A stretch of 21,431 bases of DNA from a virus (lineage: Duplodnaviria; Heunggongvirae; Uroviricota; Caudoviricetes). Below, piece by piece: positions 1,447 through 20,954 of this stretch. The DNA is taken from IMG/VR virus record IMGVR_UViG_2563366923_000001, positions 1 through 21,431 of that record; one strand, written 5' to 3'. Below the pieces are notes generated by a model. That model saw only the letters and a program-made list of their open reading frames with translations. It had not been told where the DNA came from and ran no database searches. Within the stretch, counting starts at the first letter, position 1, and every line of letters starts with the position of its first letter. A program made the position numbers and the translations under genes.

Positions 1447-1533
1447 GCTGAAAAACATAACCCATAAAATGCTAGCTGTACCAGGAACCACCTCCTTAGC
1501 CTGTGTAATCTCCCTTACACGGGCTTATTTTTT
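1447..1533 (+). ncRNA. cyaR: CyaR (RyeE) Hfq-dependent small RNA
   Basis: Sequence GCTGAAAAACATAACCCATAAAATGCTAGCTGTACCAGGAACCACCTCCTTAGCCTGTGTAATCTCCCTTACACGGGCTTATTTTTT recognised as CyaR; 3' stem-loop (CCTGTGTAA/TTACACGGG) plus U-tract; lies between yegQ and the P2 remnant as in E. coli. Confidence 0.7.
1507..1533. repeat. P2 att core copy (attR, ogr-proximal): AATCTCCCTTACACGGGCTTATTTTTT
   Basis: 27-bp sequence is the reverse complement of the P2 core AAAAAATAAGCCCGTGTAAGGGAGATT as I recall it; an identical copy lies at 20928-20954. Confidence 0.8.
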
Positions 1534-1595
1534 ACGTACAACAAATTGAAATAAAAGGATTTATTTCTGGTCACGTCCACACATTGACCACATCG

Positions 1596-1630
1596 ACAAA
1601 AAAGCCCCTCGACTGAGGGGCTTTCTGTTT
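1596..1630. terminator. Bidirectional rho-independent terminator (GCCCCTC-GACT-GAGGGGC between an A6 run and a T-rich run); terminates ogr on the minus strand
   Basis: 7-bp GC stem at 1604-1610/1615-1621, preceded by AAAAAA and followed by TTTCTGTTT, 14 nt downstream of the ogr stop. Confidence 0.55.
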
Positions 1631-1634
1631 GTAA

Positions 1635-1853
1635 TTACATCCACATAATTTGCTGCCCTGACGGCAACGGGTGTGGCCTTACGGCGTGGACTTCTCCCGG
1701 CTTCACGATGTATCGCTGTACCGACTCATAAGTGATGAACGTGGCGCTGCAATTCACGTTCTGACACTGGTGATAACGCTCTTTTGTCGTGTCAGTGATA
1801 TAGCGGCTTGTACGCGCATGTGCGGCATGCTGGCATAAAGGACAATGAAACAT
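1635..1853 (-). CDS. ogr: Ogr, zinc-finger late-gene transcription activator (72 aa)
   Basis: Internal Met of the 93-aa track ORF gives MFHCPLCQHAAHARTSRY..., with CxxC...CxxxxC zinc-finger cysteines and length 72 aa matching P2 Ogr; ATG at 1853-1851. Confidence 0.9.
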   Translation of the reverse strand: MFHCPLCQHAAHARTSRYITDTTKERYHQCQNVNCSATFITYESVQRYIVKPGEVHAVRPHPLPSGQQIMWM

Positions 1854-1934
1854 CGCGAGCACCTCTTCCGGTTTTATTGATGGTGCCATTTTAGTTAATT
1901 TATCCTTATAAAACAAACAGATAAAATAAAAACA

Positions 1935-3098
1935 TCACTCATCATCTTCTGTTTCGTACTCCACATCAGAAAGCCTGACCTCAAGCTCTAAAGACGTCGT
2001 GAAGCCGCTATTATTCAGAAAATGTGTCACCTTAGTGATTGTCCAGTCCTGCTCGTCTATGACGCGCTTAAAGCCTGACACTTTAACCGGTGTTTCCGTG
2101 TAAATATCTGCCCGACCGGTAGCCAGGCTGATGGAGAACTCCGCCACACCCCGTTGCAGTTTATCCCACTTCGCCTGAGCGGCGCGCATGGCCTGCGCTT
2201 TCGTGGCATATACCGTAGTCAGGGCAAAAACGTTGTCAGCCTCACCGGCCATGTATTCACCTTCGCGCGCTTCCGGTACTTTTGGCGCTTTCTTCTGCGT
2301 GACCGGTTTCGCTTTCGGGTGCTCCAGTGCGCGCAGGTGTTTTTCTTTCTTTTTGCGTTTCAGTTTTACCTTCTGCTTTTGCGGCTTCGGGTCTTTGGTG
2401 TGTAACCACTTTGCCGTTACGCCGGTGTAAGCTCCACGGTCAGCAATCGCAAAATGATGACGGTCGCCGTCGCTGCGGGTGATGGTAATCTGCGGGATTT
2501 TTTTACCGCTGGCCGTCACCCCCTGCCCCGCTTTGAGAAACAACAGTTTTCCCATTTTTACCGACACCTCACCGCCGTTGCGTTCTGCAAGACGGGTCAG
2601 GAATTTCGCATCAGACTCCTGCGACTGGTCGATGTGCGGGATTTTAATTCCGGCCAGTGACGGAGCGACACTGGCTTCCAGCCTGTTACGGGAGGCTATC
2701 GCTTCAACAATCGCACCGAGTGTGGTGTCATGCCAGGAGCCTTCCCGGCGGGAATTGAGCGTCCCGCGAAAATCTGCACTCCGGGCGCGGATGGTGACCA
2801 CATCCGGCGCGCCCCGGTGTTCAACCTCATCAACGGTGAATTTCCCTTTGCATACCAGGGCAAAACCTTTCCAGCCGATATACACCGTCAGGACAGCGCC
2901 ACGAACCGGTAGCCCGACCTGCCCGTCGGCATCGTTCAGTTCAATATCAAGCTGGTCAGCCTCAAAGCCCCGGTTATCCGTCAGGGTCATGCTCATCAGA
3001 CGGTCGCTGATATTGCCGGTAATATCCCTGCTGTCGAGCATCAGCATGTAATCCGGCGTCAGCGTACTGCCTGCATCAAATGTCAGTGCATCCAGCAT
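1935..3098 (-). CDS. D: P2 gpD-like tail protein (387 aa)
   Basis: 387-aa ORF, same length as P2 gpD and in the conserved position between U and ogr; start ATG overlaps the U stop (TAATG). Confidence 0.88.
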   Translation of the reverse strand: MLDALTFDAGSTLTPDYMLMLDSRDITGNISDRLMSMTLTDNRGFEADQLDIELNDADGQVGLPVRGAVLTVYIGWKGFALVCKGKFTVDEVEHRGAPDVVTIRARSADFRGTLNSRREGSWHDTTLGAIVEAIASRNRLEASVAPSLAGIKIPHIDQSQESDAKFLTRLAERNGGEVSVKMGKLLFLKAGQGVTASGKKIPQITITRSDGDRHHFAIADRGAYTGVTAKWLHTKDPKPQKQKVKLKRKKKEKHLRALEHPKAKPVTQKKAPKVPEAREGEYMAGEADNVFALTTVYATKAQAMRAAQAKWDKLQRGVAEFSISLATGRADIYTETPVKVSGFKRVIDEQDWTITKVTHFLNNSGFTTSLELEVRLSDVEYETEDDE

Positions 3099-3577
3099 TA
3101 TCCCGCCCCCGTCATCCCCGTGAATCTGGTCGCCATACTGCCAGCTTTACCGATGAGCGATTCCGCCTGTTTACCGATATCGCCATAAAGCGCGGCCAGT
3201 GATTCATCAACGCGGGTGAGCGACAGCGTAAAATCAATTTTCCGGGGTGTGCCGTCTGCAAAGAAAATACTCCCTGTTTCACTTACCCTGCTGATGACAT
3301 ACATGCCGTAAATCATGCCGGTGCCATCCAGCAACGGCCACGCCCGGCCTTCATCTGCCATCAGCCTGAGCGTGGTCATCGTCAGCTTTCCGCCGGTCAG
3401 TTCGGGATAAAGCACACCGGCAAGCGTCATGTTTTCCTCACCCACACCGAGAAACTGGTAGGCCTCCCGTTTACCGATACGGGAATTTGACGGCCAGCGA
3501 TAATCTGATTCACGCTGCATGGTCTGGTGTGGCAGCGTCTGGCGCATAAAAACAAACATACCTAACGCGAGCATCAT
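3098..3577 (-). CDS. U: P2 gpU-like tail protein (159 aa)
   Basis: 159-aa ORF matching P2 gpU in length and position upstream of D. Confidence 0.82.
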   Translation of the reverse strand: MMLALGMFVFMRQTLPHQTMQRESDYRWPSNSRIGKREAYQFLGVGEENMTLAGVLYPELTGGKLTMTTLRLMADEGRAWPLLDGTGMIYGMYVISRVSETGSIFFADGTPRKIDFTLSLTRVDESLAALYGDIGKQAESLIGKAGSMATRFTGMTGAG

Positions 3578-3806
3578 TTTTCGTCACCTCCTTAACCGAA
3601 TCCGGGAAGCCACCGAGCGACCACTCCATTGACAGCGCATCGTCATCAAGGCCGAGGTCTACCGGTGCGCTGCCGTTCATCCCCGCACCGCGATAGTTTT
3701 CGAGCTTACGGGTCAGTTTTGGTAGCGTGACGGACTTCGCGACGCCCTGATAGCTGTAGCCGTTCAGAAAGACGTTCATTAACTTGAGTTTGCGCGGCAT
3801 TGCCAT
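3510..3806 (-). pseudogene. FII: Truncated tail tube gene FII (N-terminal about 72 codons fused to out-of-frame sequence upstream of U)
   Basis: ORF begins MAMPRKLKLMNVFLNGYSYQG... (tail tube N-terminus) but is only 98 aa against 172 aa in P2; its last about 27 codons read through the U start region in another frame; genes E, E' and T that lie between FII and U in P2 are absent. Confidence 0.7.
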
Positions 3807-3818: not shown

Positions 3819-5009
3819 TTAATTGCTGTTAACCGAGGTGACCAGATTTGCCAGGTATTTATCGGTAATACGCTGGCGCAGGGTCAGGTTTTCGAGAGGA
3901 GGCACCGGGGTATAGTCGTAGTCGATATACAGTTTTCCGGCCTTGAGGGTTTCCGCATCGTTGGATTCTTCGCTGAACCAGCAGGTCGCATCCACGATAT
4001 AGCCGTTTGTTTTCAGTTCACGGAATTTGGCATTGATGCCGTCAACGATGTCGCGAATCAGCGTTGCGGTGATGGGCTTGTCCACCGCCCACATGTGCGC
4101 CTCAGCCATCGTGTCGGCCAGCACCTGCGCGGTGCGGGTGTAGTTTTCAAAGAGGAACAGCGGGTCATCAGAGCAGGTACGGTTACCCCAGAAGCGGAAA
4201 CCGTCGCGGCGAATCAGCGTTGTGACGCCAGACTCGTTCAACAGGTCAGCATCGGTGCCGGACTCCTGCAAATCCCAGAATACAGATGCGCTGATGCCGG
4301 TAACACCGTTTACCCCGACGTTGGACAGCGTTTTATGCCAGCCCTGCTCCTGGTCGATTTTAGCGCGCAGACCCAGCGCACGGGCGGTGGCATACGCGGT
4401 GGCGGTGGTACTGGTGACCGTATCCCATGCGAGGAAATCCGGCCAGATGACCATCAGCTCACGCTGGCTGAAATTCTGGCGGTAGGCTTTCACCTCGGAA
4501 ATGGTCTTACAGCCCCATGCGCTGATATATCCGAAAGCGCGCAGCTTCTGACAGACGGATGCTAGTGCAACAGCCACCTCTTTGGTATCCAGTCCCGGCA
4601 CACCGAGAATACGCGGTTTAACACCGGTTACCGACTCCGCCGCCAGCAGGGCTTTCAGTCCGGTGTACTGACCGTTTTCGTCGGTGGTGCCGATGATATT
4701 GGAAACGGTCTGCGCAAGTTTCGTTTCCTCGTCGTCGCCGGTGCCGTCTTCCACACGCACGACAACGGTGACCGGTTTTGACTGGTCGGCGATGGCCTGC
4801 AACGATGCCGCCAGCGTGCCTTTTTTACCGGCCTTTGCAATTGCGCTCTGCACATTGGTAATCAACACCGGTTTATTGAGGGGGAAGGTTTCCGCATCCG
4901 CATCGCTGGCCGTGCAGACCATGCCGACAATGGCAGTGGATACGGTGGAAATGACGCGGGTGCCGTCGTTAATCTCCAGCACCTGCACGCCATGATGATA
5001 GTCACTCAT
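3819..5009 (-). CDS. FI: P2 gpFI-like tail sheath protein (396 aa)
   Basis: Track ORF 3819..5162 has an internal start MSDYHHGVQVLEINDG... at 5009-5007, preceded by a GGAG RBS; the 396 aa from that Met matches the P2 FI length. Confidence 0.85.
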   Translation of the reverse strand: MSDYHHGVQVLEINDGTRVISTVSTAIVGMVCTASDADAETFPLNKPVLITNVQSAIAKAGKKGTLAASLQAIADQSKPVTVVVRVEDGTGDDEETKLAQTVSNIIGTTDENGQYTGLKALLAAESVTGVKPRILGVPGLDTKEVAVALASVCQKLRAFGYISAWGCKTISEVKAYRQNFSQRELMVIWPDFLAWDTVTSTTATAYATARALGLRAKIDQEQGWHKTLSNVGVNGVTGISASVFWDLQESGTDADLLNESGVTTLIRRDGFRFWGNRTCSDDPLFLFENYTRTAQVLADTMAEAHMWAVDKPITATLIRDIVDGINAKFRELKTNGYIVDATCWFSEESNDAETLKAGKLYIDYDYTPVPPLENLTLRQRITDKYLANLVTSVNSN

Positions 5010-5133: not shown

Positions 5134-5378
5134 GCCTTGATTTGCACTCTCTCAATTTCCAACTGACAAAATACGTAGCCAAAACGCTATCAAATCTGAC
5201 AGCCTGCTTTGAGCGAGAAACAGACATGGATGGCATACAGTGAAAGTAGCCGCACAATGAGCATCACTGCAATTCTGAATTCAAGCTCTAATACTATTGA
5301 GACCGTATCATACAGTCACTCGCAAAAATTACTTTACCTGAGTGAAAAAATTGATTCCAAGCAAAATGAAAACTTGTA

Positions 5379-5406
5379 ATTCATTATTACATGCATAATA
5401 ATGAAT
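5379..5406. promoter_or_regulatory. AT-rich 11-bp perfect inverted repeat (ATTCATTATTA-CATGCA-TAATAATGAAT) about 100 bp upstream of the OLD-like gene; candidate operator
   Basis: Read directly from the sequence; a TATATAAA -10-like element follows at 5420-5427. Confidence 0.3.
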
Positions 5407-5508
5407 AAAAACTTGAGCTATATAAACCAAAGTTGTTCCGAATAGTCCGTTGAGACATCACTCGAATTATAGGAATACAAGGTTTTATTTTTATAAGGAA
5501 TCGCTCCC

Positions 5509-7773
5509 ATGGGTTTGCAAAGCATAAGAATAAAAAACTTACTATCATTTAATGATGTAATAATAAATTCCCTAGAGGATGTAAATTGCATTGTAGGGAT
5601 GAATAATGTTGGCAAATCCAATCTTATGAAAATATTGAAATATTTTTACGACAAACTTGACGACATAAAAGTAATACCTCCTGATTTTCATTCTAGTTAT
5701 ACTCCTTCAGGGTCAATAACATTGACTTATGATGTAACAAGAATAAAGAGAATTGTAATGAACCCTAATAACAATGGTCGCTTTCACAAGCATATTTATA
5801 ACACTTTATTTAAGCCACAATCATTCATCCGAAAGCCGCAGAAATTCTGTCTTCCTTTCATATCTCCTTTGGGTTTCCAAAGAAAAAGCACTTATAGCAT
5901 TACACTCACAATTTCTAAAGATGACTCCGTAACTTGGTCAATTAGCACACCAAATGCCCGGCATCTAATTAAAACTCTATTTCCTTTTTTCCATATTGAA
6001 ACCAGACACATTGACTTATACGACTGGAATAGCATATGGAAAATGCTCAGCAGTATAAATTCCTTTAATTTCTCTGAAATAAAAAAAGAAGAACTCCTTG
6101 AGTTTTTGAATGAGAAAATATCAACTAAGCGGGGTAGTTACAAGAAGTATATAGAAAGAGTTGAAAATGTAATCCATACTAAACCTTACACCTATAAAGA
6201 TAAAGTCGTTAATTATCTAAAAATAGTTTTAGATGGCGATATTTTCATAAATAAAGGTGAAGAACTACATGTTCAGTCGGATGGCACGAACTCTCACAAA
6301 TATCTTGAAATTATACTTAGCCTATTAATTTCATTAACAAGAACAGAATTTATCAATCCAATTATATATATTGATGAACCTGAAATTGGGCTACATCCAA
6401 AACTTAGCGAGAACTTTATTGAGAACATAAGCCTGACATATAAAAAGTATGATAAAACCCATGAGGAAATTGAGCCTGGAAAATATTCAACACCATATCC
6501 AACTCTTATATTTAGCACTCATTCTCCGAGTTTACTAAAACTCACGCTAAAATCTTTCTTACATAAACAGCAGGTTTTGCATTTTTCAAAAGAACGTGAC
6601 AACTCGACCAAAATTTCAAAATTAAACTCTAAATATAATGACATTAGATTTATAAATATGCTTAGCGATAATGAGGCCCGTCTATTCTTTAGTGAATACA
6701 TTCTATTTGTAGAGGGCGCCACAGAAGTTGAATTGTTTAGAAATTATAATCTGCAAAAGCTGTTTCCAGTACTTAAAAGGTTAGATGTGTATGATTGCGA
6801 TGAAGTAATGTTGAAAAATATAAACCCCAGCTACTCAAATGCAGCCATCCCATTTCTAGTAGTAAAGGATATTGATCAGATTGCCGTTGTTGACTTCGAA
6901 CATGAACAATTTAAATTTAATTCGAAAGGGAAATCAATTATTAATAAAATCATTAAGAGAGATAAACTACACTATTTTTCGACATACCAAAAACCTTTTC
7001 TTAACGCAGCAAAATTTCTTTTAAGCCAAGATGAAAGGAAAGTAACATTCAGTGAAAATGGCCTAAAATTCAGACACTTCAGTATAGGCAGAGTTATAAG
7101 CGCAGTTAATTTTTTATCCTCTAAAGATAATGTTTATTATACTTCTACAACGATAGAAGGCTCATTGATCAATGAATTCTCTTTAGAGACATTCTCTTTA
7201 TGGATCATTGACATAGTAATGAGAAGCTTTAATGTAAATAATAAAAACCCTGTAAAAATGATTAATGCTCTGCTGCAAAAATACGATATTAAAACCCAAT
7301 CAAAACAACTTTTTCCCAAAATACTTTCAAAATGTGAAACAAATCATGACCTACCATTGCGACACATGAGATTATTGAAAATCATTAAAATTAGATATGC
7401 TAAAGAAATAATTGATGAGTTTAAAAAAACCATCCCCGACGTAAAAGACCAAGTTGCTATCTTGCGCCTTATTTTTAGTGGCAAAACAGAAACTCTTGTA
7501 AGTATAGAAATGCATTATAAAATTGATCAAAAACCGATACGGCAAGATATATTGGATTATATCAAAGCATTAAAGTCAGAAAATTTCTCTTTTATGAGTT
7601 CTTACATAGGAAAGACTTCTGGATGGGTTACAAGCTTCATTGATTTTAGCCTTAATCATTATTCAGCCCTAGATAAAGAAAATGTCGAAAAAAAATTCCG
7701 CTTGGCTTTTCCTGAAATTTCGCATATCATCGATCATGCTTCTTCTTCGATAGAAGCTGGAGGGCTCAAATGA
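5509..7773 (+). CDS. OLD-family nuclease-like protein: N-terminal ABC-type ATPase, central TOPRIM domain, about 300-aa unassigned C-terminal extension (754 aa)
   Basis: Walker A GMNNVGKSN near the N-terminus; Walker B/D-loop IIYIDEPEIGLHP; H-loop FSTHSP; TOPRIM glutamate motif LFVEGATEVELF and DxD-like VVKDIDQIA; AAGGAA RBS before the ATG; strongly AT-rich relative to the prophage backbone. Confidence 0.75.
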   Translation: MGLQSIRIKNLLSFNDVIINSLEDVNCIVGMNNVGKSNLMKILKYFYDKLDDIKVIPPDFHSSYTPSGSITLTYDVTRIKRIVMNPNNNGRFHKHIYNTLFKPQSFIRKPQKFCLPFISPLGFQRKSTYSITLTISKDDSVTWSISTPNARHLIKTLFPFFHIETRHIDLYDWNSIWKMLSSINSFNFSEIKKEELLEFLNEKISTKRGSYKKYIERVENVIHTKPYTYKDKVVNYLKIVLDGDIFINKGEELHVQSDGTNSHKYLEIILSLLISLTRTEFINPIIYIDEPEIGLHPKLSENFIENISLTYKKYDKTHEEIEPGKYSTPYPTLIFSTHSPSLLKLTLKSFLHKQQVLHFSKERDNSTKISKLNSKYNDIRFINMLSDNEARLFFSEYILFVEGATEVELFRNYNLQKLFPVLKRLDVYDCDEVMLKNINPSYSNAAIPFLVVKDIDQIAVVDFEHEQFKFNSKGKSIINKIIKRDKLHYFSTYQKPFLNAAKFLLSQDERKVTFSENGLKFRHFSIGRVISAVNFLSSKDNVYYTSTTIEGSLINEFSLETFSLWIIDIVMRSFNVNNKNPVKMINALLQKYDIKTQSKQLFPKILSKCETNHDLPLRHMRLLKIIKIRYAKEIIDEFKKTIPDVKDQVAILRLIFSGKTETLVSIEMHYKIDQKPIRQDILDYIKALKSENFSFMSSYIGKTSGWVTSFIDFSLNHYSALDKENVEKKFRLAFPEISHIIDHASSSIEAGGLK

Positions 7774-7893
7774 GCTGACGCATGCCGTCACTTGCTCCAG
7801 CAAACACTAGCTCGGATTGTCTTGCGTCCGCTAAGCCGCTTTAAGCCTCACGGGGTGTAAAGATGTTATTGGTATCGAAGAGGAAGCTTTTAC

Positions 7894-8991
7894 ATGAAAC
7901 ATAAAATTAATAAAATTAACAATGATTTTTATAAAAATTTTTATCTAAGAGAAACATTCTCCGATGATATTATTATGACTCACGGAGTCCCTGAGATTTC
8001 CAATGACGATTATAAAAGCATTTCATTAAAGAATAGATTATGTTTCACTATAAGAAAAAGCTCCCCGCATAAAAAAATACAAGAAAGACTTATAAAAAAT
8101 TTCCTAGTAAAAGTTCCTCTTAGCTCACCTGCAATTGCCTATCGTAAAAAATTAAACTATTTGAATTTTCTAGAACCTCATATCCATGGTGAGAACTTTT
8201 GTCGAATTGACTTATGTAATTTTTTTCATAACATAAACTATAACTTTGCAAGGGAGTGTTTCAAATCCTACTTTGAAGATGAATATCTGGTAAATAAAAA
8301 AATCAAAGTTATTGATGCATTTTTAAATAGTTTATCTATTGAGATTGTAGTCAACAATAAAAAGAAAAAAATATTTCCAATGGGATTCGCCACATCACCT
8401 TTCATATCCAATATAATTTTCAGAAAGTTAGATATTTTAATTAAAAGTTTGTGTGACAAAAGAAGCATCATTTACACTCGTTATGCTGATGATATGCTTT
8501 TTTCGAGCTCCGGGAAAGACAAACTTCTTGGAAGTGAACATTTTGACAACGAGATATCAACTATTGTCAATACGGCAGGACTGTCCCTCAACAAACATAA
8601 AAAAATATTTAAGAAAGGCATAATCTCACTAAACGGCTATGTAATAGAAAATAAAAATGGAGGGGGAGAGAGAGGGAGTATAAGAATATCTAATGGAAAA
8701 ATGTATTTAATACGGAAAGCACTAGATAAATTTAAAAAGGGATATTCTAAAGAGCATATTTGCAAAAAAGTATTTTCTGTTAAATCACCAACTGTCAAGT
8801 ATAATAACAATGCAGATCAGTTTGTAACGGATTTTTATAATTCACAATTCTCTAATAAGTTAGCTGGTTATCGTTCATATTTAATATCATTAGTAAAATT
8901 TAATGATAAATTCAGATGTTTTCACGAAAACGAAATCACCAAATACTCAGTGATTATTGATGAAATTTCTAATGCACTGCTAAAACCCTAG
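7894..8991 (+). CDS. Reverse transcriptase, retron/Abi-like (365 aa)
   Basis: RT motifs in order: RIDLCNFFHNI (motif 2 region), FPMGFATSPFISNIIF (motif 4, compare retron PQGxxxSPxLSN), YTRYADD (catalytic YxDD at 8482-8493), LSLNKHKK and ISLNGYVI (retron-like motif 6/7 region, but no canonical VTG); GAGGAAG RBS; AT-rich; no maturase or endonuclease domain. Confidence 0.8.
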   Translation: MKHKINKINNDFYKNFYLRETFSDDIIMTHGVPEISNDDYKSISLKNRLCFTIRKSSPHKKIQERLIKNFLVKVPLSSPAIAYRKKLNYLNFLEPHIHGENFCRIDLCNFFHNINYNFARECFKSYFEDEYLVNKKIKVIDAFLNSLSIEIVVNNKKKKIFPMGFATSPFISNIIFRKLDILIKSLCDKRSIIYTRYADDMLFSSSGKDKLLGSEHFDNEISTIVNTAGLSLNKHKKIFKKGIISLNGYVIENKNGGGERGSIRISNGKMYLIRKALDKFKKGYSKEHICKKVFSVKSPTVKYNNNADQFVTDFYNSQFSNKLAGYRSYLISLVKFNDKFRCFHENEITKYSVIIDEISNALLKP

Positions 8992-9413
8992 CCTTAGAAA
9001 GTTAATGTTTTGGCCCTAAAGCAAGGGCCTTAATAGTAAAAATAGTTACCAGCATAAGTATTCCTTCAACTAATCACACAAATTAACGTTAGCAACGTTC
9101 CCTTTTTACACCGTCTGAGCACTAAGCTGTCGGTCATTCTGGTCTACCATACTATTATACGTAACATCCAAGAGTGTTCCTGCAAACGGTCGTAGAAAAT
9201 GCGGGCTTCGCCATTTTCTGGCCGACGCCGGTCTCGTCGAGTTCTTCTGACTGTTCAAGTGCAAATGCGCCTGTAGGTATCCCTACAAAAGAAACCATCA
9301 ACTTTTAGATAGTATCTGGCACTCCAACTCCCGCTGTTGACTCGGAGCGGACTGTCAGATTAGGCTTTACTCTGTACCATAGATACGTTAGCTCACTCCA
9401 GAGATCATACAAC

Positions 9414-9941: not shown

Positions 9942-9944
9942 TAC

Positions 9945-11860: not shown

Positions 11861-11864
11861 GGTT

Positions 11865-12568: not shown

Positions 12569-13060
12569 TTACGCTCCCGGCTCTGCGGTCGCTTTAGCCG
12601 GTGTGGAGAAATCACCGACCTTAATTTTTTCCACCAGACAACCGGCGGCGTAGTCCTCCACCACGTAATCAATGTTCATTGACTCGTAGTTCTCCACGCG
12701 ATCGAGTTTCGGGTTTTCCTCAATCACGCGGCGATGGCTGTCATCCATGTAGTAGATGGACAGGTTTTCCAGCTTCGTGATGAGCATCGCATCAGCCGGG
12801 AAGTACGGGACGCGTACCGCTGGCAGGTTGCCGATGCGTTTCTGGCTGATGATGACGTCAGCGGCCAGCATTTCGCTGTTGTCCTGCTCCTTGTTGACGA
12901 TGGGAAAATACTTGTCCGCCAGTAGCTGACGTCCCACAATCACCACAAGGTCAGGGTCTTCCTGATACCACGGCTCAATCAGGTTGTTGGTCGCATCCAT
13001 CACCAGTGCATCAAGGCTGGCATAATCACCGCCCTTATCCGTTCTGGTCGGGTGAACTGT
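12569..13060 (-). pseudogene. N: Major capsid gene N remnant (C-terminal about 157 codons only)
   Basis: Frame reads ...KGGDYASLDALMMDATNNLIEPWYQEDPDLVVIVGRQ... to the stop at 12569; an upstream in-frame stop at 13061-13063 and no N-terminal about 200 codons; P2 N is 357 aa. Confidence 0.68.
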
Positions 13061-14051
13061 TCAACCGGGGACGCGCCAGCGCCGCCGAACGCGTGGAAAT
13101 CGACGTCAGTCATAACGCCCTTGCCGGTGGGCTTCTCTGTGCGGACGGCCAGTGGCGGCAGATTGTCACCATTGAGGACGCCCTGAAAGGTGGCTGCACG
13201 CTGTTCGACATTGAGCAGCTTAAACGCGAAAACAGCGCCGACGATTTTAAAAACCTGTTCATGTGTGAATTTGTTGACGACAAGGCGTCGGTATTTCCCA
13301 GCAGGATTTCAGCCGCTTTGTGCTGGATTTTCTGGTGTTCGGCAATGCGTTTCTGGAAAAGCGTTACAGCACCACCGGTAAGGTCATCAGACTGGAAACC
13401 TCACCGGCAAAATATACCCGCCGTGGCGTGGAAGAGGATGTTTACTGGTGGGTGCCGTCCTTCAACGAGCCGACACCTTTCGCGCCCGGCTCCGTGTTTC
13501 ACCTGCTGGAGCCGGATATTAATCAGGAGCTGTACGGCCTGCCGGAATATCTCAGCGCCCTTAACTCTGCCTGGCTGAATGAGTCGGCCACTCTGTTCCG
13601 CCGCAAGTATTACGAAAACGGCGCACATGCCGGATACATCATGTACGTCACGGATGCCGTGCAGGATCGCAACGATATCGAAATGCTTCGCGAAAACATG
13701 GTGAAGTCGAAAGGCCGCAACAACTTTAAAAACCTGTTTCTCTATGCCCCGCAGGGAAAAGCCGACGGCATTAAAATTATCCCGCTCAGTGAAGTGGCGA
13801 CGAAGGACGATTTTTTTAATATCAAAAAAGCCAGTGCCGCAGACCTGCTGGACGCGCACCGCATCCCCTTTCAGTTGATGGGCGGCAAGCCGGAGAACGT
13901 CGGGTCGCTGGGCGATATTGAGAAAGTAGCAAAGGTCTTTGTCCGCAATGAGCTTATCCCGTTACAGGACAGGATCCGCGAGATAAACGGCTGGCTCGGT
14001 CAGGAGGTCATCCGATTTAAAAACTACTCACTGGACACTGACAACGGCTGA
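13040..14051 (+). pseudogene. Q: Portal gene Q remnant: no start codon, reading frame switches near 13280-13300
   Basis: C-terminal 243 codons (13320..14051, frame 3) are an intact portal-like sequence; the N-terminal part is in frame 1 (track ORF 13006..13578); frame 3 has a stop at 13275-13277; frame 1 upstream of about 13040 is antisense to N; position next to cos fits P2 Q. Confidence 0.62.
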
Positions 14052-14056
14052 ACATC

Positions 14057-14078
14057 GCCGCCTGCGGGCGGCTTTTTT
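14057..14078 (+). terminator. Rho-independent terminator after Q (GCCGCC-TGCG-GGCGGC plus TTTTTT)
   Basis: 6-bp GC stem and T6 tract beginning 6 nt after the Q stop codon. Confidence 0.7.
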
Positions 14079-14220
14079 ACACCCCGTCATCACGCCCTCA
14101 CACGTTCGCCACTGTACAAAACACCCCGCAGACACACCAACGCCCCGGCAGGCCGACTAAACGCCATCACGACGCGCTCAGACGCTGAAAAAATAAAATC
14201 AGCACCACCGCCAGCGCGCA

Positions 14221-14239
14221 GTGCTTTCCCCGCCTCGCC
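14221..14239. other. P2 cos cohesive-end sequence (reverse complement of GGCGAGGCGGGGAAAGCAC)
   Basis: GTGCTTTCCCCGCCTCGCC at 14221-14239 matches the 19-nt P2 cohesive end as I recall it, and sits where cos lies in a P2 prophage (between Q and the tin/old region). Confidence 0.72.
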
Positions 14240-14331
14240 CGCCCGCTTCATGGGGCGGTTTTAATGCAGTTACATAGATACTATGGATCCGCACCAGTCC
14301 TGACCGCACGCAGCCTGAACGGACATCCCCG

Positions 14332-14365
14332 ACGCATGCAAAAACATTCACTTGTTGCATGCAAC
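14332..14365. promoter_or_regulatory. Tandem GCATGCAA palindromic motifs (CGCATGCAAA at 14333-14342; perfect palindrome TTGCATGCAA at 14355-14364) upstream of the 313-aa cargo gene; candidate operator/promoter
   Basis: Read directly from the sequence; the two sites are 23 bp apart; a related ATGCATGCAA occurs at 16698-16707 upstream of the divergent cargo operon. Confidence 0.35.
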
Positions 14366-14477
14366 GGCTTATTTAATGACAAATCAACTTAAATTTACAA
14401 AATCCACAGGTATGGATACTTTGCGAACATGATAGGCTTACGAGAATTATCGTGCCTGTTTTTGAACGGAGAAAGTT

Positions 14478-15419
14478 ATGCAAGGTGAAGTTGACGAACA
14501 GCAACCAAATGAGATTATTTCGGAGTTTGGATACTATCCAGTAGAAGTTAACATTGAGACTGAACAATTTTCTTTGCGTACTTTACCCGGTCTTATTGAG
14601 AAAGTGGAACGTATTAACAATGATAAAAACGTTGTTAATGGTTGGATATACCCTGGGAATCGAAAGGTATATAACCTTAATGGTGACACATGCACAATGC
14701 CTTATAGTTACCGAGTATTCGGCATGCCCAAAACGCACACACTAAAATTAAAAAACACATCCTCGTTAGAAACTCTCAACTTTGTTGTGTGGTGCCTCTC
14801 TTTTTTCAAGGGTATAAGATTGACAACCACTGACGCTGGTTTTCTTGATGCAACCACTATCAAGCCCACTAAGTTAACCGACTTTATTCTCGTTGGATGC
14901 TCTGAAAAAGAAGTAATAGAGCTAGCACTTAACTATATAAAAGACAAACAAAAAGATGATCGCTCCATTAAAAGAATAGCTGCGGTGATACACTCCCTAT
15001 TCCTGTCACATAACCCACTATACCTTTCCTTTGAGAAATTCCAGTATCTTTATATGGCTCTTGATTGCTGTTTTGCTATAGCATGGGATGAAAGGGATAA
15101 AGTCATTAAAGAGAAAAAACCATCTCATCAAAATAGAGTATATTGGACGTGCGAAAATTACGGTGTAAAAATCCCGTCATGGGCAACAGATGAATGTAAT
15201 GTTTCAGTTATACGCAATGATAATTTTCATGAAGCCATTTTTAATGGGCAACCGCTTGGTTTCTCTAGTATCAATGATTGTCAATATGGTAGCGATATAT
15301 TGCTACAAATGCAGGCTCTGGTATGTCGTCTACTAGCGGCAATACTCTCTGTAAATGATCGTAAATATATCGCATCTACAATCAGCTCGATAGAGTACCA
15401 TTCATTAAAATTAACTTAA
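14478..15419 (+). CDS. Hypothetical protein (313 aa), AT-rich cargo at the tin/old position; no recognisable motifs
   Basis: Long ORF with a GGAG RBS 8 nt before the ATG; composition contrasts with the prophage backbone; first gene after cos. Confidence 0.6.
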   Translation: MQGEVDEQQPNEIISEFGYYPVEVNIETEQFSLRTLPGLIEKVERINNDKNVVNGWIYPGNRKVYNLNGDTCTMPYSYRVFGMPKTHTLKLKNTSSLETLNFVVWCLSFFKGIRLTTTDAGFLDATTIKPTKLTDFILVGCSEKEVIELALNYIKDKQKDDRSIKRIAAVIHSLFLSHNPLYLSFEKFQYLYMALDCCFAIAWDERDKVIKEKKPSHQNRVYWTCENYGVKIPSWATDECNVSVIRNDNFHEAIFNGQPLGFSSINDCQYGSDILLQMQALVCRLLAAILSVNDRKYIASTISSIEYHSLKLT

Positions 15420-15491
15420 TGCTAACGCCTCACTTCGCTCGTTGTTCAACCCCGCCAGCCTGAAAACAAGTTTCACGACTGGCGGCGTTCT

Positions 15492-15644
15492 CTATCGTCT
15501 GCGTGGTGGTGGCGCAACTCTGGACTGACCGATATAGTTAAACCGCCCGTAATTATCCCGGACTATTTCGGCACACCCGACCAGCTCGTCAGGCGTCAGA
15601 TTTTCGTTGACCATAATCTGCTGTAAACGGTGAACAATGGCCAT
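15492..15644 (-). CDS. Possible small ORF (50 aa, MAIVHRLQQIMVNENLTPDELVGCAEIVRDNYGRF...), function unknown
   Basis: ATG-to-stop ORF below the track size cut-off, with an in-frame upstream stop and a weak AGG-type RBS; backbone-like GC content; could be a remnant of a phage gene. Confidence 0.2.
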   Translation of the reverse strand: MAIVHRLQQIMVNENLTPDELVGCAEIVRDNYGRFNYIGQSRVAPPPRRR

Positions 15645-15738
15645 CAACCTGACACTTTTGGTGTTATATGTGGTATCTCACATGAGATTACTGACCAAGG
15701 TGCATCTTGGTTGACTCATTTCATATCCATCCACACCA

Positions 15739-16419
15739 CTACATCTTTATTGCATATTTATTAAAAGACGCCCAGTTCAATAAAAAAACATTATTCATAT
15801 ACCATTCAATATGATTTTTATTTTTAGATTGACTGTCAAGTAGCACACAAACATCAACCTGTTTATCAATCAATTTTGCAATATAAACCACAAACTCAAC
15901 ACTCGAATATCTCTTTGTGCCTAGCAAATATAATATTTCATCTGACAAATAATTAGACTCATGTGAAAAGACATTATCATTTAACAAAATCAACCCGCCA
16001 ATCGAGTCATTTAAATCCAAAACATCCTTTGTTGCATTTATTTGCTTATTAGCTTCCTTAACTATCTTTGTTTTAATATTTTCATAAGCAAAGTTCATTA
16101 TATCATTTCTAAATCGCTTTGAGTCTGGGTGTCTTTTTATCAACTCTTCTAAATGAATAGCACCATGCCAGTTTTTTGCAAGCCAACTATCAGTTTTAAC
16201 CAACTCATTCAGTTTATCATTGACATTCTTGACCCTGTCAGAAAAAAGACTTTTCATCTCCAAAATTATCTTTTTATTATCAATAAGATAATCTGCCATC
16301 TTGCGATTCTGACCATCCTTCATCCGGAACTTATGATGAATATCATCAATAGAAATCCCTTTTTCATGCTCAACAATGAATCTCTTAACATTGTTTTCTA
16401 ATTCGCTGTATTGTTTCAT
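15739..16419 (-). CDS. Hypothetical protein (226 aa), AT-rich cargo; no recognisable motifs
   Basis: ORF with a strong GGGGGAAAG RBS; 27 nt downstream of the DUF2158 gene on the same strand (operon-like). Confidence 0.6.
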   Translation of the reverse strand: MKQYSELENNVKRFIVEHEKGISIDDIHHKFRMKDGQNRKMADYLIDNKKIILEMKSLFSDRVKNVNDKLNELVKTDSWLAKNWHGAIHLEELIKRHPDSKRFRNDIMNFAYENIKTKIVKEANKQINATKDVLDLNDSIGGLILLNDNVFSHESNYLSDEILYLLGTKRYSSVEFVVYIAKLIDKQVDVCVLLDSQSKNKNHIEWYMNNVFLLNWASFNKYAIKM

Positions 16420-16446
16420 ACTTTCCCCCGTGAATTTTATTATGAT

Positions 16447-16638
16447 TCACTTACGTGGACGACACAGCATACCACTTTTACTCTCTGCTATTTCCAGTAA
16501 ATCAATGGAGAATGACTCCTCGTGCAAAACTCCTTCTTTATCATGCCAAATACATTTCGCATGAGTTTCAGTAGAGTCAGATACAGTCATTTTAAATCCA
16601 CCGCTTTTCAAACAAACAACATCTGCAGGCTTTAACAT
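16447..16638 (-). CDS. DUF2158 / YodC-like small protein (63 aa)
   Basis: Internal start MLKPADVVCLKSGGFKMTVSD... with GGAG 7 nt upstream; the DVVxLKSGGxxMTV signature resembles YodC-family small proteins; the track ORF 16447..16722 over-extends the N-terminus. Confidence 0.55.
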   Translation of the reverse strand: MLKPADVVCLKSGGFKMTVSDSTETHAKCIWHDKEGVLHEESFSIDLLEIAESKSGMLCRPRK

Positions 16639-16764
16639 TTTTGTCTCCAACATTTTTAAGTAATGCATTATAACATAATGATATTGACGTAGATTTAATG
16701 CATGCAACCATATAAAAAACAATCAATTACAGTCAAAACTACTTATACTGTATAGATGAGATCC

Positions 16765-17781
16765 TTACTCAAATTGATGCCAGAATCCCGACCACTCATC
16801 AGCGACCGGATACGTGAATTTTTTCCCGTCATAATTTACGGTCGCGCCACGCGCCAGCGCCTCAAGCTCCCATCGCTGCGGCCTGATACCGTTCTGAGCA
16901 AGGTCAACGCGGATACGGGTGATTTGCAATCGTTCAGACCGGGTCAGTCTGGCCGATGGCGCTATTTCATGTGGTTTTAACGGGCTTCCGTTTCTTTGCT
17001 GACGATTTGGTGTTTTCAGGCCGTGTTTTAATGCACCCCTGAGCGTCCTCACGACCTCCGGGTCATTCCATTCGATAACACCGTCATCAACCAGATTTAG
17101 CACTGCTGCGGCGTGTTCAGAAGGTGTGGGAGCCGGTAACGAAGTATCACCACCGGTGAGCTTTCCACAGTTATTGACAGGACTCCGAGGCGCGGCGATG
17201 CCGCTTTTTAACGTCAAAGGCTCAACGACCGGCACTTTCGGCACAATGCGCCAGTCCGTCGTTCTGGTGATATGAATATGACGCGCGCCGAGATGCGGCG
17301 CGTAAATGCCGACCACTCTCTCGACCTCTTCCTCGTACTCGTTAACGTCATCCGACGGGCTACGGGCAACCCTGACAGTCTGACAATCGCGCGGAACATT
17401 TGCCCCACCCTGCGCGCTGATATACAACGCAAAATCACCACTGTCTGCGGCAGCGCGTGCAGCCTCGACGCGTTCGTCAAACTCATCAGCAATGCTGACG
17501 CCGCGAGGCAATTTGCGTAGTTCACGGTAAGCCCCCATTGTCGGCAGACCAACCGTTTTAAATTGCGGAATGCGCCACGTTGACGCCCATGCGGTAACAG
17601 CAGCAGCTGTGTCTTTCAGCGGCCTGCCGGTATCATTATCGAGCTGACCATCCAGTGCATAGCCGTCGATGTTTTTTGAGATGTATTTCGCGATATATCC
17701 CGCAGCACCGCCCCGGTTAAGATGTTTTGTTGTTCCTGAATAAAATCTACGTTGTCCGGCATTATCAGCTCCTTTTATCGT
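16765..17781 (-). pseudogene. A: Replication initiator gene A remnant (C-terminal about 335 codons, with the YIAKYISK active-site region, but no N-terminal about 430 codons and no start codon)
   Basis: Frame is open from 17781 to the stop at 16765 and reads ...KHLNRGGAAGYIAKYISKNIDGYALDGQLDNDTGRPLKDTAAAVTAWASTWRIPQFKTVGLPTMGAYRELRKL...; the rolling-circle Rep Y-x-x-K-Y motif is present; no in-frame start before Met 17538; P2 A is 761 aa. Confidence 0.68.
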
Positions 17782-18067
17782 TCAGTTTCTTAAATTCATC
17801 AGCGCAATAGCTGGCGATTTCTGTCATTAATTTCGTCAGTTCATCCACGGAGGAGATTTGCTTGTGGAATACAGCGCGTTTAACAAGTAAATTGACCACC
17901 TCAGACAGGAGGTTTAATTCATTCTGATAAATCGCGATAACAGATTCAGTTATGTCGCGTTTTTCTTTATCAAGACAAAGTTGAATAAGAGACAAATCAC
18001 CATTTTCCATAACGGCGATTTTTAAGGCGTTATTCAGTAATACAACTGAATGAGAACAGGACATCAA
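17765..18067 (-). CDS. Hypothetical phage early-region protein (100 aa)
   Basis: ORF in the B-to-A interval, where P2 carries small orf80-83-type genes; start overlaps the stop of the upstream 74-aa ORF (ATGA). Confidence 0.45.
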
Positions 18068-18288
18068 AGTACCTCCCCGCGAGACAATCCGATATTGTGA
18101 AATTTTTCCGACTCCTGACTGAGCAGCTCGACTATCTCCACGCGGGATAACTCCGCCTTTGTGATGTGGCGAATCATGGCGTCAAGATGAGAAGAAAAGC
18201 GCGTCGCAGCGTCGGCCTGTGCTTCGGTTCTGGCCTGTTGCAGCAGTAATGCGTATTTACCGCACTGATTTTCAGAAACTGTATGCAT
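18064..18288 (-). CDS. Hypothetical phage early-region protein (74 aa)
   Basis: ORF translationally coupled to the downstream 100-aa ORF; lies in the early operon between B-like and A. Confidence 0.45.
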
Positions 18289-18351
18289 GACTTTCTCCAG
18301 GCAAAAAGAAGCCCCGCACGATTAAGTGCGTTAAAAACTCTGGTTAATTAC

Positions 18352-18858
18352 TTAATGCAGATATTGCTCTGGTTTTACCGACGTCAGAATTGTCGGTGCA
18401 TACTCAAACAGGCTGAATAATTCACGTAATGCACGGAATAAAGCATCACGCCAGTAACATGATTCTTCATTAATTCGCCAGTATGGCTGGTTGAATTCTT
18501 TTTCAGTCAATCCGGCATGCATAAATAAAGTACGACGCTGACTGACTGTTAAAAAACTAATATATGCATACTCACTTGCGCCAACCTGACGGCGTTTTGA
18601 GAATGCCCCACGCAATTCATCAATTGCACATACCAGTCGTTCACGTTCGACGTCGTTCATTTCTTCAAAACACATCGTTGCGTGACGCTGTTTTAACTGA
18701 GCATGGAAGCAAACCGTTAACCGTTCGCGCTCCATCATCTGATTATAATAATCACATGTATCCTGCCAGCGAGGAACGGCAAGATGCTTACCAATTATCC
18801 GGCGCATAGCTGCTGGCTGTTTTTCAACGAGATTGAGCGTCATCACTGTCATTTCCAT
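18352..18858 (-). CDS. B: P2 gpB-like replication protein (168 aa)
   Basis: Size (168 aa against 166 aa for P2 B) and position (cox - small ORF - B - small ORFs - A) match the P2 early operon; the sequence itself was not independently recognised. Confidence 0.55.
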   Translation of the reverse strand: MEMTVMTLNLVEKQPAAMRRIIGKHLAVPRWQDTCDYYNQMMERERLTVCFHAQLKQRHATMCFEEMNDVERERLVCAIDELRGAFSKRRQVGASEYAYISFLTVSQRRTLFMHAGLTEKEFNQPYWRINEESCYWRDALFRALRELFSLFEYAPTILTSVKPEQYLH

Positions 18859-19019
18859 ACCCTCCGGCTTTTCAGAAAGGTCAGAGCCTTTTTTAACGGA
18901 CTCTGTTTTTTGGTGCGGATAATGATTCCCTTACGCCCCTTACCGTGGGTGATGGTGAAGTCAATCGCCCTGGGGCTTTCGTTACGCAGTAACTGAGCAA
19001 TACAACGAGGCTCATTCAT
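18849..19019 (-). CDS. Small early-operon ORF (56 aa; orf78-position)
   Basis: Internal Met at 19019 preceded by an AGGAGAA RBS; lies between cox and the B-like gene. Confidence 0.35.
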   Translation of the reverse strand: MNEPRCIAQLLRNESPRAIDFTITHGKGRKGIIIRTKKQSPLKKALTFLKSRRVWK

Positions 19020-19029
19020 ACGGTTCTCC

Positions 19030-19305
19030 TTAACGTGGTTCACCGAGACCTAACCACATCAACCAGCCGTCACGAATCTCTTTAGGGCGGCTTTCATAAG
19101 CCAGTTTTAGTCCGTTATTCCATGCCGGAAGGTATACCCAATATTCACCTGCACGACCTGAAGCTGATTGTGGATCGGTCATATCAATTACAGGCAGCTT
19201 TCCTTTATCGATCATCCGACGAACCGCTCCTGTCGATTTTCCTATTAGTTTTGCGAACTCCTGATAAGGAATCGCATCAGTCATGAGTGTTACTTGCTTG
19301 CTCAT
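19030..19305 (-). CDS. cox: Cox, excisionase / early transcriptional regulator (91 aa)
   Basis: 91-aa ORF recognised as P2 Cox (MSKQVTLMTDAIPYQEFAKLIGKSTGAVRRMIDKGKLP...), divergent from C. Confidence 0.9.
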   Translation of the reverse strand: MSKQVTLMTDAIPYQEFAKLIGKSTGAVRRMIDKGKLPVIDMTDPQSASGRAGEYWVYLPAWNNGLKLAYESRPKEIRDGWLMWLGLGEPR

Positions 19306-19419
19306 GTCGTCCTCTAGCCCTCATGAATTGCGTTTAATGTCTTATAATGCCTTTTAGTGCCCACATCCAAGCACTAAACAATCTACATCTAAACTAAATA
19401 CTATTGAGATCTAAACACC
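19306..19419. promoter_or_regulatory. Divergent Pe/Pc switch region with two direct operator repeats ATCTAAAC (19387-19394 and 19409-19416, 22 bp centre-to-centre)
   Basis: Intergenic region between divergent cox and C; 8-bp direct repeats two helical turns apart, as described for P2 C operators; TTATAAT element at 19342-19348. Confidence 0.6.
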
Positions 19420-19719
19420 ATGTCAAACACGATAAGCGAGAAGATAGTCTTAATGCGAAAATCAGAGTATTTGAGCAGACAACAACTTGCTGATTTAACA
19501 GGGGTTCCGTATGGCACGCTGAGTTACTATGAAAGTGGTCGTTCAACACCTCCAACAGATGTCATGATGAACATCCTGCAGACCCCACAATTCACCAAAT
19601 ACACTTTATGGTTCATGACCAATCAGATCGCTCCTGAGTCCGGGCAAATTGCGCCCGCTCTCGCACACTTTGGGCAAAACGAAACAACGTCGCCCCACTC
19701 CGGTCAAAAGACTGGTTAA
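19420..19719 (+). CDS. C: Immunity repressor C (99 aa)
   Basis: 99-aa ORF, same length as P2 C, divergent from cox and upstream of int. Confidence 0.88.
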   Translation: MSNTISEKIVLMRKSEYLSRQQLADLTGVPYGTLSYYESGRSTPPTDVMMNILQTPQFTKYTLWFMTNQIAPESGQIAPALAHFGQNETTSPHSGQKTG

Positions 19720-19834
19720 CAATTCATCGTGAATATATTCATCACAAGTGCCTACTATTGGTGGCTAAATTTCAGCCACCACGAAAAAAGCGATTAGTAG
19801 TCGCAAAAAAACACACCACTCGGAGGGTTTTCTG

Positions 19835-20848
19835 ATGGCAATCAAAAAACTCGATGATGGTCGATATGAAGTGGACATCCGCCCTACTGGACGTAATGGA
19901 AAACGCATCCGTAGGAAGTTTGATAAGAAAAGCGAAGCTGTCGCTTTCGAGAAATACACGTTGTACAACCACCACAATAAAGAATGGCTATCAAAACCAA
20001 CAGACAAGCGACGTCTGTCGGAGCTGACACAGATCTGGTGGGATTTAAAGGGTAAACACGAAGAGCATGGGAAATCTAATCTTGGAAAAATTGAAATCTT
20101 CACAAAAATAACGAATGACCCATGCGCATTTCAAATTACGAAATCGCTTATCAGCCAGTACTGCGCCACCCGAAGAAGTCAGGGTATTAAACCTTCGAGT
20201 ATCAATCGTGATTTAACATGTATTAGCGGCATGTTTACAGCCCTGATTGAAGCGGAGTTATTCTTTGGTGAGCACCCTATCAGAGGGACAAAAAGGCTTA
20301 AGGAGGAAAAACCAGACACAGGCTATCTCACGCAGGAAGAAATTGCCTTACTGCTTGCTGCTCTTGACGGCGACAACAAAAAGATTGCGATTCTTTGCCT
20401 GAGTACTGGAGCACGTTGGGGAGAAGCAGCTCGTTTGAAAGCAGAAAATATCATCCATAACCGCGTCACGTTTGTTAAAACGAAAACAAACAAACCACGC
20501 ACCGTCCCGATCTCAGAGGCTGTTGCCAAAATGATCGCGGATAACAAACGAGGTTTTTTATTCCCTGATGCTGATTACCCTCGCTTCAGACGAACAATGA
20601 AAGCAATAAAACCGGATTTGCCAATGGGGCAAGCCACACATGCACTAAGGCACAGCTTTGCCACTCATTTCATGATTAATGGAGGAAGTATTATCACGCT
20701 ACAACGGATACTAGGTCACACGCGGATTGAGCAAACTATGGTTTACGCTCATTTTGCGCCAGAGTACCTTCAGGACGCCATTTCTCTTAATCCGCTAAGA
20801 GGTGGTACTGAGGCCGAGAGTGTCCACACAGTGTCCACAGTAGAGTAA
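19835..20848 (+). CDS. int: Tyrosine integrase (337 aa)
   Basis: 337-aa ORF (P2 Int length) with the C-terminal tyrosine-recombinase signature (…HALRHSFATHF…LGHTRIEQTMVYAHF…); GGAGGG RBS; adjacent to the att core. Confidence 0.9.
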   Translation: MAIKKLDDGRYEVDIRPTGRNGKRIRRKFDKKSEAVAFEKYTLYNHHNKEWLSKPTDKRRLSELTQIWWDLKGKHEEHGKSNLGKIEIFTKITNDPCAFQITKSLISQYCATRRSQGIKPSSINRDLTCISGMFTALIEAELFFGEHPIRGTKRLKEEKPDTGYLTQEEIALLLAALDGDNKKIAILCLSTGARWGEAARLKAENIIHNRVTFVKTKTNKPRTVPISEAVAKMIADNKRGFLFPDADYPRFRRTMKAIKPDLPMGQATHALRHSFATHFMINGGSIITLQRILGHTRIEQTMVYAHFAPEYLQDAISLNPLRGGTEAESVHTVSTVE

Positions 20849-20927
20849 CGTTTAAGGGCTTTCAGTGGTAATTTATGCCGCTCAAACCCGCATTGTACCG
20901 TTGAAAGCCCCTACTGGTGACACCCTA

Positions 20928-20954
20928 AATCTCCCTTACACGGGCTTATTTTTT
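20928..20954. repeat. P2 att core copy (attL, int-proximal): AATCTCCCTTACACGGGCTTATTTTTT
   Basis: Identical to the 27-bp copy at 1507-1533; 80 bp downstream of the int stop. Confidence 0.8.

Follow-up and report, generated by a model that had tools for sequence, protein, structure and literature searches.

A cryptic P2-like prophage of Escherichia coli reduced by six internal deletions and retaining a complete Retron-Eco8 island

This study investigated a DNA stretch of 21,431 nucleotides (IMG/VR record IMGVR_UViG_2563366923_000001, referred to below as the window), in which positions 1507-20954 are occupied by a P2-like prophage of 19,448 bp between cyaR/trhP and yegR. The element belongs to the KTE233 lineage, a clinical lineage of E. 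coli, and is a cryptic prophage of the P2-like (Peduovirus) type located at the 3' end of cyaR. It once measured approximately 34 kb and was cut down to 19.4 kb by six internal deletions, each of 0.9 to approximately 5 kb and together of 14-15 kb. All four late operons were destroyed, as was the gene for the replication initiator A, which leaves the element unable to replicate, to build particles, or to lyse its host. A preliminary description of this DNA had proposed that selection kept the cargo and immunity genes while inactivating the phage. Our results favor a narrower reading, namely the ordinary deletional decay of a dead prophage combined with host-level selection that filtered out deletions removing the Retron-Eco8 island. 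We assign this reading a probability of roughly 0.7.

To characterize the element, we aligned the window with P2 (NC_001895) and with E. coli UPEC85 by using blastn. UPEC85 carries an intact 33.4-kb prophage that matches the window at the same site, between trhP (yegQ) and yegR. The alignment resolved the element into eight colinear P2 blocks (94-99% nucleotide identity) and two AT-rich non-P2 islands, which occupy the classical P2 cargo hotspots at 5220-9330 (4,111 bp) and 14269-16781 (2,513 bp). These sizes agree with the earlier estimate of 19.4 kb remaining, roughly 6 kb of it cargo. The window is approximately 96-97% identical to P2 and P2-like coliphages over 50-68% of its length. When all 42 P2 proteins were searched against the window by using tblastn, 23 were matched, and the matches lay in the expected order. 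Integration of the Int type is evident from the 27-bp P2 core, which is present as direct repeats at both ends. The attL core (AATCTCCCTTACACGGGCTTATTTTTT, 1507-1533) is repeated exactly in the attR core (20928-20954) and, when reverse-complemented, is the same as the attP core of P2.

Whole-element alignment with P2 allowed each deletion to be sized. At junction J1 (3593-3598, TAACCG), approximately 3.2 kb was lost, comprising the tape measure gene T, E/E', and the 3' part of FII. Junction J2 (11024|11025) reflects the loss of approximately 1.4 kb, including the N-terminus of H, I, and the C-terminus of J, and at J3 (12517-12523) a further 4.5-5.4 kb is absent, comprising the N-terminus of V, S, R, lysABC, K, Y, X, L, and most of M. 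Approximately 2.6 kb was lost at J4 (13036-13040; the N-terminus of N, the scaffold gene O, the pO/pP promoters, and the N-terminus of P), approximately 0.9 kb at J5 (13294-13298; the C-terminus of P and the N-terminus of Q), and approximately 1.8 kb at J6 (17728-17729, TG; the N-terminus of A, orf83, and most of orf82). The microhomologies at J1 to J6 measured 6, 0, 7, 5-6, 5, and 2 bp, respectively, and exceeded the random-join expectation at five of the six junctions. A 24-bp overlap reported by blastn at J2 proved spurious, the actual microhomology there being 0 bp. Short microhomologies are typical of RecA-independent illegitimate recombination, and we infer that the deletions arose in this manner. 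As a separate observation, J3 created an in-frame fusion of the small terminase subunit to the spike protein, M(1-16)::V(93-211), at 12209-12565 on the minus strand, where public annotations call a 118-amino-acid (aa) gene.

The tblastn search further classified 13 P2 genes as intact (W, G, FI, U, D, ogr, int, C, cox, orf78, B, orf80, and orf81) and 10 as truncated (Q, P, N, M, V, J, H, FII, orf82, and A). Matches to O, L, X, Y, K, lysABC, R, S, I, E/E', T, orf83, and orf91 were absent, and no copy of a lost P2 gene was found by this search elsewhere in the window. With incomplete virion, lysis, and replication modules, the element is a defective derivative and not a functional phage. The losses listed in the preliminary description (terminase large subunit, scaffold, lysis genes, tape measure, and tail fibre N-terminus) were thus correct as far as they went; the list omitted replication gene A, the portal, the capsid, the small terminase subunit, the tube, and the baseplate genes V, J, and I, and it was silent on five intact tail genes. 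Its statement that int, C, cox, ogr, the attachment (att) sites, and both islands are intact was confirmed by tblastn and by sequence checks.

The regulatory genes are well preserved. The C, Cox, Ogr, and B proteins are 100% identical to those of P2, and the Pe/Pc switch exhibited 0 mismatches in 131 positions, so that the C/Cox switch is that of P2. The remnant should probably express C from the unaltered Pc promoter and would thereby confer P2-type superinfection immunity. The five tail genes D, U, FI, W, and G, which are useless to the remnant, are as intact as the regulators and as pristine as the cargo.

The cargo island in the Z/fun hotspot (island 1; 5220-9330, plus strand, GC content approximately 31%), which replaces fun(Z), is a complete Retron-Eco8 of type I-B. 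Its 754-aa OLD-family effector (5509-7773) matched the PADLOC model ATPase-Toprim_I-B (1.2e-210) and the Pfam families AAA_15/AAA_21, and contains the Walker lysine K36 and the TOPRIM residue E402; its exact sequence carries the name "retron Eco8 family effector endonuclease" in the source databases. The 365-aa reverse transcriptase (RT; 7894-8991) matched RT_I-B (2.7e-106) and carries YADD at residue 197. Between the two lies the non-coding RNA (ncRNA; approximately 7738-7887), flanked by 15-nt a1/a2 inverted repeats (7738-7752 and 7873-7887) located 120 nt apart. The ncRNA was placed by these repeats; no retron ncRNA model matched in an Rfam scan of the window, in which CyaR was the sole match. 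It overlaps the 3' end of the effector gene. A type I-B RT with YADD, an OLD ATPase-TOPRIM effector, and an ncRNA flanked by a1/a2 between effector and RT together define a type I-B retron, and the gene order, the defence function, and the catalytic residues are as described for Eco8 (PMC12887533). Another report describes Retron-Eco8 as an abortive-infection system triggered by SSB, the phage protein that binds single-stranded DNA (PMC13402713). Production of multicopy single-stranded DNA and defence activity in KTE233 are predicted from these features.

To investigate whether the survival of the cargo exceeds chance, we placed six deletions randomly and without overlap in a 33.9-kb ancestor in 200,000 trials. 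The retron island escaped in 12% of the trials, island 2 (the cos-proximal cargo island) in 22%, and both in 1.5%. The cox-C-int-attR segment escaped in 54% and the ogr-attL segment in 88%, and all of the listed features escaped together in 0.3%. The within-element signal therefore comes from the cargo and not from the regulators.

We then employed exact-protein look-ups anchored on U, the RT, the OLD effector, and the 226-aa protein of island 2 to collect sibling forms, which were mapped on UPEC85 coordinates; sampling took the longest contigs, at most 24 per anchor. The results revealed many intact prophages and six other decayed forms, derived from closely related P2 prophages that carry the retron (B-G; the element in the window is form A), each with different deletions. 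Form B (L031/L032) has two deletions, and its left end was unseen. Form C (L033), also with the left end unseen, has four, which include an internal deletion of A and the loss of C and cox; int is lost as well. Forms D (L018/L040; two deletions) and E (L023; one deletion) have lost both C and int, and form F (L036; two deletions) kept these two genes and lost cox and island 2. Form G (L034, GCA_024717775.1, 7454-22265) carries two deletions at another att site, by focA/pflB; it decayed independently at this second site, where the retron remains together with the early region and an AAA_13 hotspot gene. A form truncated by an insertion sequence is also present (L022).

Across the seven forms, the retron was kept in 7/7, the cos-proximal island in 4/7, and the C gene in 4/7. 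Loss of int, C, and cox together occurred in three forms (C, D, and E), and cox alone was lost in a fourth (F). Four forms, A to D, had been found through island 2 or the U allele and not through the retron genes; their conditional probabilities of retaining the retron were 0.068, 0.246, 0.144, and 0.065, and the joint probability was 1.6e-4. Non-random retention of host-beneficial genes was thus found for the retron only, and neither for int/C/cox nor for island 2, whose loss in three of seven forms shows that it enjoys no general protection. The proposal that selection kept the cargo is therefore well supported for the retron and doubtful for island 2. Selection to keep the immunity and regulatory genes is not supported; their retention is not distinguishable from chance, the C gene was lost in 3/7 forms, and at the same site E. 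coli K-12 keeps only ogrK and a fragment of D, in the 629-bp cryptic prophage PR-X.

Two of the sibling forms exhibited a shared feature of a different kind. In L018/L040 (15216-15296) and L023 (13354-13434), two different large deletions join H to the same nucleotide of the attR core (CCCTTA^CACGGG). This shared joint points to a recurring way for P2 to decay, through aberrant recombination that Int mediates with pseudo-att sites; a single such event would take out int, C, and cox along with the cos-proximal hotspot.

We further investigated the distribution of the window's own deletions. An exact look-up of the J-fragment fusion protein identified 16 contigs, and loci of the element were obtained from KTE233 (GCA_000351325.1, KB732580.1), from four additional assemblies at NCBI, and from four runs assembled by Logan. 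Of these nine loci, eight are 100% identical to the window across all covered bases, including every junction in range, and the ninth (L010) differs by a single gap; carriers of the fusion proteins show the junctions throughout the stretch of the element that their contigs cover. None of the six junctions was found in 5,426 complete E. coli genomes, approximately 1,600-2,000 of which contain P2-like DNA. All 10 intact proteins checked are alleles present on 33 to more than 1,000 contigs, and the junction proteins occur on only 5-16. The six deletions are therefore private to one circulating clone. The 10 intact proteins are free of amino-acid changes private to the clone. With identical copies and widely shared alleles, there is no time depth for a selection test based on private mutations or on the ratio of non-synonymous to synonymous substitution rates (dN/dS). 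The comparison of related strains, suggested earlier as a means of ordering the decay events, yielded the sibling forms described above. It yielded no intermediate with a subset of the deletions among the 5,426 complete genomes and the carriers of the fusion proteins, and hence no order of events.

On the basis of these findings, we consider deletional decay with selective filtering at the retron the most plausible account. DNA of a dead phage would be free to be lost, and deletions would accumulate through ordinary deletional bias. Deletions removing the retron would be filtered out because the host would gain from an abortive-infection defence triggered by phage SSB, and the element would now act as an immobile defence island. 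The retention of int, C, cox, ogr, and possibly island 2 in this lineage would most simply be due to chance. Toxin-antitoxin "addiction" was considered as a cause of retron retention and set aside as unlikely because DNA cleavage requires the Eco8 holocomplex, the effector being inactive on its own (PMC12887533).

Several points weigh against this account. A null of uniform placement is a crude one, and part of the choice of feature sets was made with the data already in view. The variants come from at most 24 contigs per anchor, and the left ends of forms B and C lie outside what was seen. With copies lacking divergence and the 10 tested alleles common to other prophages, purifying selection on the cargo relative to the tail genes is not demonstrable. 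Morons are the least conserved parts of P2-like prophages according to Bobay et al. 2014, as conveyed in a review (PMC6379469), and island 2 itself was lost in 3/7 decay forms. Moreover, defence by the retron in this strain is a prediction from sequence, and island 2 is a candidate only.

One rival account is purely neutral decay, according to which the deletions fell by chance, nothing was under selection, and the cargo has merely not yet been deleted. The equal condition of all retained genes, including the useless tail genes, is what such a process would leave, the 629-bp remnant in K-12 exhibits its end state at this very site, several relatives have lost island 2 and the immunity genes, and the within-element probability of 0.015 is post hoc. 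However, chance alone does not readily explain the retron, which was kept in all seven forms with a joint probability of approximately 1.6e-4 for the four ascertained independently of it. A mechanistic shield is not evident either, because a deletion with endpoints in the flanking core DNA would take the island with it. We therefore regard neutral decay as unlikely, at odds of about one in five.

The full model of the preliminary description, in which selection kept the cargo together with the immunity and regulatory genes and separately favored inactivation of the phage, fares worse and appears improbable. The features that it lists are all intact, C, cox, and the switch are 100% P2, and the probability that no listed feature was hit is 0.003. 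However, nearly all of this signal comes from the two islands, given that cox-C-int-attR and ogr-attL escape by chance at the high rates stated above, and the C gene is missing from forms C, D, and E, int from the same three, and cox additionally from form F. P2 is not SOS-inducible, and the pressure to disarm it six times would be weak. One lesion, for example in A, already kills the phage, which makes selection for inactivation unnecessary. The defectiveness of the element is thus upheld, and the selection proposed to have caused it is not, since deletional bias explains the remaining hits.

A bolder proposal casts the remnant as an excision-competent, cos-bearing defence cassette that a P2-like helper, whether co-resident or superinfecting, could still mobilize, a P2-derived hitcher arising repeatedly by internal deletion; in a milder version, Retron-Eco8 islands would be the selected unit, around which P2 prophages are recurrently stripped, sometimes through Int-mediated aberrant recombination at attR. 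We consider this proposal quite improbable. Still more doubtful is its specific form, in which the 19.4-kb element itself is excised and packaged by a co-infecting P2-like helper and spreads its defence islands in the manner of a satellite. In favor of such a hitcher, the element still has undamaged att cores, int, cox, and cos, and the surviving fragment of A includes ori. However, A is truncated, and the A protein of P2 acts in cis. The tblastn search and an inventory of open reading frames (ORFs) in the window identified no P4-type helper-manipulation genes. By established P2/P4 biology, the size fits neither the T=4 nor the T=7 head, 19.4 kb being approximately 58% of a P2 head and approximately 170% of a P4 head, and a dimer being 116% of a P2 head. 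Moreover, every occurrence of the element was at this one site in the chromosome, within a single clone whose flanks are identical. It is accordingly not a P4-like satellite.

An assembly artefact, which several internal gaps could in principle reflect, or a tail-only bacteriocin (tailocin), for which the surviving tail genes D, U, FI, W, and G might speak, is scarcely credible, because the junctions are identical in at least nine independently sequenced and assembled samples, the 0-7 bp microhomologies are too short for assembler collapse, and an R-type tailocin derived from a P2 tail could be neither built nor released with the tube, tape measure, baseplate genes V, J, and I, fibre N-terminus, and all lysis genes missing and E/E', R, S, and X lost as well.

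The remaining features of the window are arranged as follows. The left chromosomal flank consists of trhP/yegQ (1-1362, plus strand), a 453-aa ORF annotated trhP in UPEC85 and K-12, and the small RNA gene cyaR (1445-1530, plus strand; Rfam RF00112, 100.7 bits), whose 3' end overlaps the attL core. The location of the cyaR end inside the core (1445-1533) indicates that a phage of the P2 type integrates into the 3' end, that is, the terminator, of cyaR and rebuilds the gene. The right flank is yegR (21114-21431, minus strand). At two loci from other strains, additional genes lie between yegP and trhP, immediately outside the prophage, namely a ParDE toxin-antitoxin pair or a HEAT-repeat gene (L002, 2304-2898; L014, 13719-15298); KTE233 has neither.

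From left to right, the minus strand carries the late-gene activator ogr (1635-1853; 72/72 aa identical to P2 Ogr), the full-length tail genes D (1935-3098) and U (3098-3577), with 99.0% and 97.5% identity to P2, respectively, a fragment of FII (aa 1-71; 3594-3806), and the sheath gene FI (3819-5009), the last two delimited by tblastn. Beyond the retron island, also on the minus strand, lie the intact tail fibre assembly gene G (9414-9941) and a C-terminal fragment of tail fibre gene H (aa 309-669), together spanning 9414-11024, followed at 11025-12565 by a fragment of J (aa 1-279), the intact W (11865-12212), and the M::V fusion ORF, and at 12569-13040 by a C-terminal fragment of capsid gene N (aa 195-357). 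The plus strand then carries an internal fragment of the terminase large subunit gene P (up to aa 380; 13036-13298) and a C-terminal fragment of portal gene Q (aa 93-343; 13294-14051). The 19-nt cos (14221-14239) matches P2 exactly.

To the right of island 2, a C-terminal fragment of A (aa 432-754; 16783-17729, minus strand) contains the ori nick site at approximately 17186. The early genes orf81, orf80, B, orf78, and cox (17765-19305, minus strand) are full length and exhibit 90-100% identity to P2. The Pe/Pc switch and the immunity repressor gene C (19420-19719; 99/99 aa identical) occupy 19300-19719 on the plus strand, followed on the same strand by the integrase gene (19835-20848; 337 aa, 99.7% identical to P2 Int).

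Island 2 (14269-16781) is cos-proximal and replaces old/tin in the old/tin hotspot. It encodes a HEPN-fold (HEPN-like) protein (14478-15419, plus strand), a 226-aa protein tentatively assigned as PD-(D/E)xK-like (15739-16419, minus strand), and a DUF2158 protein (16447-16638, minus strand). PADLOC, Pfam, and PHROGs yielded no function for the island, the DUF2158 match being the only one in Pfam; the HEPN and PD-(D/E)xK labels come from fold comparison, in which dehydrogenase folds score almost equally for the 226-aa protein. This protein and its small DUF2158 partner correspond to P2-hotspot system #63, which is listed with 67 occurrences and a blank function (Rousset et al. 2022, Table S5B). 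The island is a reasonable candidate defence locus. Two small minus-strand ORFs, at 14090-14251 (53 aa) and 15492-15647 (51 aa), match the conserved phage families phrog_17350 and phrog_11386 of unknown function; one adjoins cos and the other lies within island 2. The loci L044-L052 (approximately 13000-17000 in each) carry the exact orf81 allele of the window, yet other cos-proximal cargo, namely old/tin, retron Ec48, SIR2+DUF87, an FRG-domain gene, or a large SIR2_2 protein, which illustrates rapid swapping of defence genes.

Taken together, the element is a cleanly mapped case, resolved at each of its breakpoints, of a temperate phage becoming a defence island fixed in the chromosome. Recent surveys of P2/P4 hotspots raised, and left open, the idea that anti-phage cargo persists longer than the phage that brought it in. 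The sibling remnants provide quantitative support for this idea, small in scale and modest; this support concerns one island, and the same data reveal no such protection for the immunity and integration genes. The findings also carry a warning for annotation, because P2-like regions with int, C, cox, and att sites can still be dead.

Compared with P2 and UPEC85-type prophages, the element shows no difference in the att core, in cos, or in C, cox, ogr, and B, and it has the same two hotspots (Z/fun and old/tin). It differs in that 14-15 kb is absent in six pieces and the head, lysis, tape-measure, baseplate, and A functions are missing; relative to P2, the hotspots hold Retron-Eco8 and the HEPN/PD-(D/E)xK/DUF2158 island in place of fun(Z) and old/tin. 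The retron resembles the Retron-Eco8 of E. coli 200499 in its OLD-ncRNA-RT order, 754-aa OLD protein with K36 and E402, YADD-containing RT, and a1/a2 repeats (PMC12887533, PMC13402713); here it is known from sequence and belongs to a dead P2 prophage, whose Z/fun hotspot it occupies. PR-X of E. coli K-12 (ogrK, yegZ) shares the integration site beside cyaR and the retained ogr-proximal end, whereas its 629 bp, without cargo, int, or immunity, represent a much later stage of erosion.

The general concept of prophage domestication was reportedly set out by Bobay, Touchon, and Rocha in 2014 (PNAS 111:12127). Domestication in that sense would involve vertical passage through diverged strains, with purifying selection on the genes kept; all copies of this element are identical and lack clone-private changes, a state in which dN/dS has no differences to count. 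P2 hotspots are established reservoirs of defence systems (PMC9122126), and a study that explicitly asks whether such decay is domestication has reported P2 and P4 elements that are defective, their mobility genes being pseudogenised and their defence genes near-identical (bioRxiv 10.64898/2026.02.27.708500). The pattern observed here has thus already been described for defective P2 elements and is a known kind of prophage decay, not a new system. As in those elements (section 10 and Fig. 6C of the same study), mobility and virion genes are pseudogenised or deleted, and the neighbouring defence genes are near-identical to those of intact phages. The present element differs in being one fully mapped case with six junctions, for which six sibling forms permit a test of retention.

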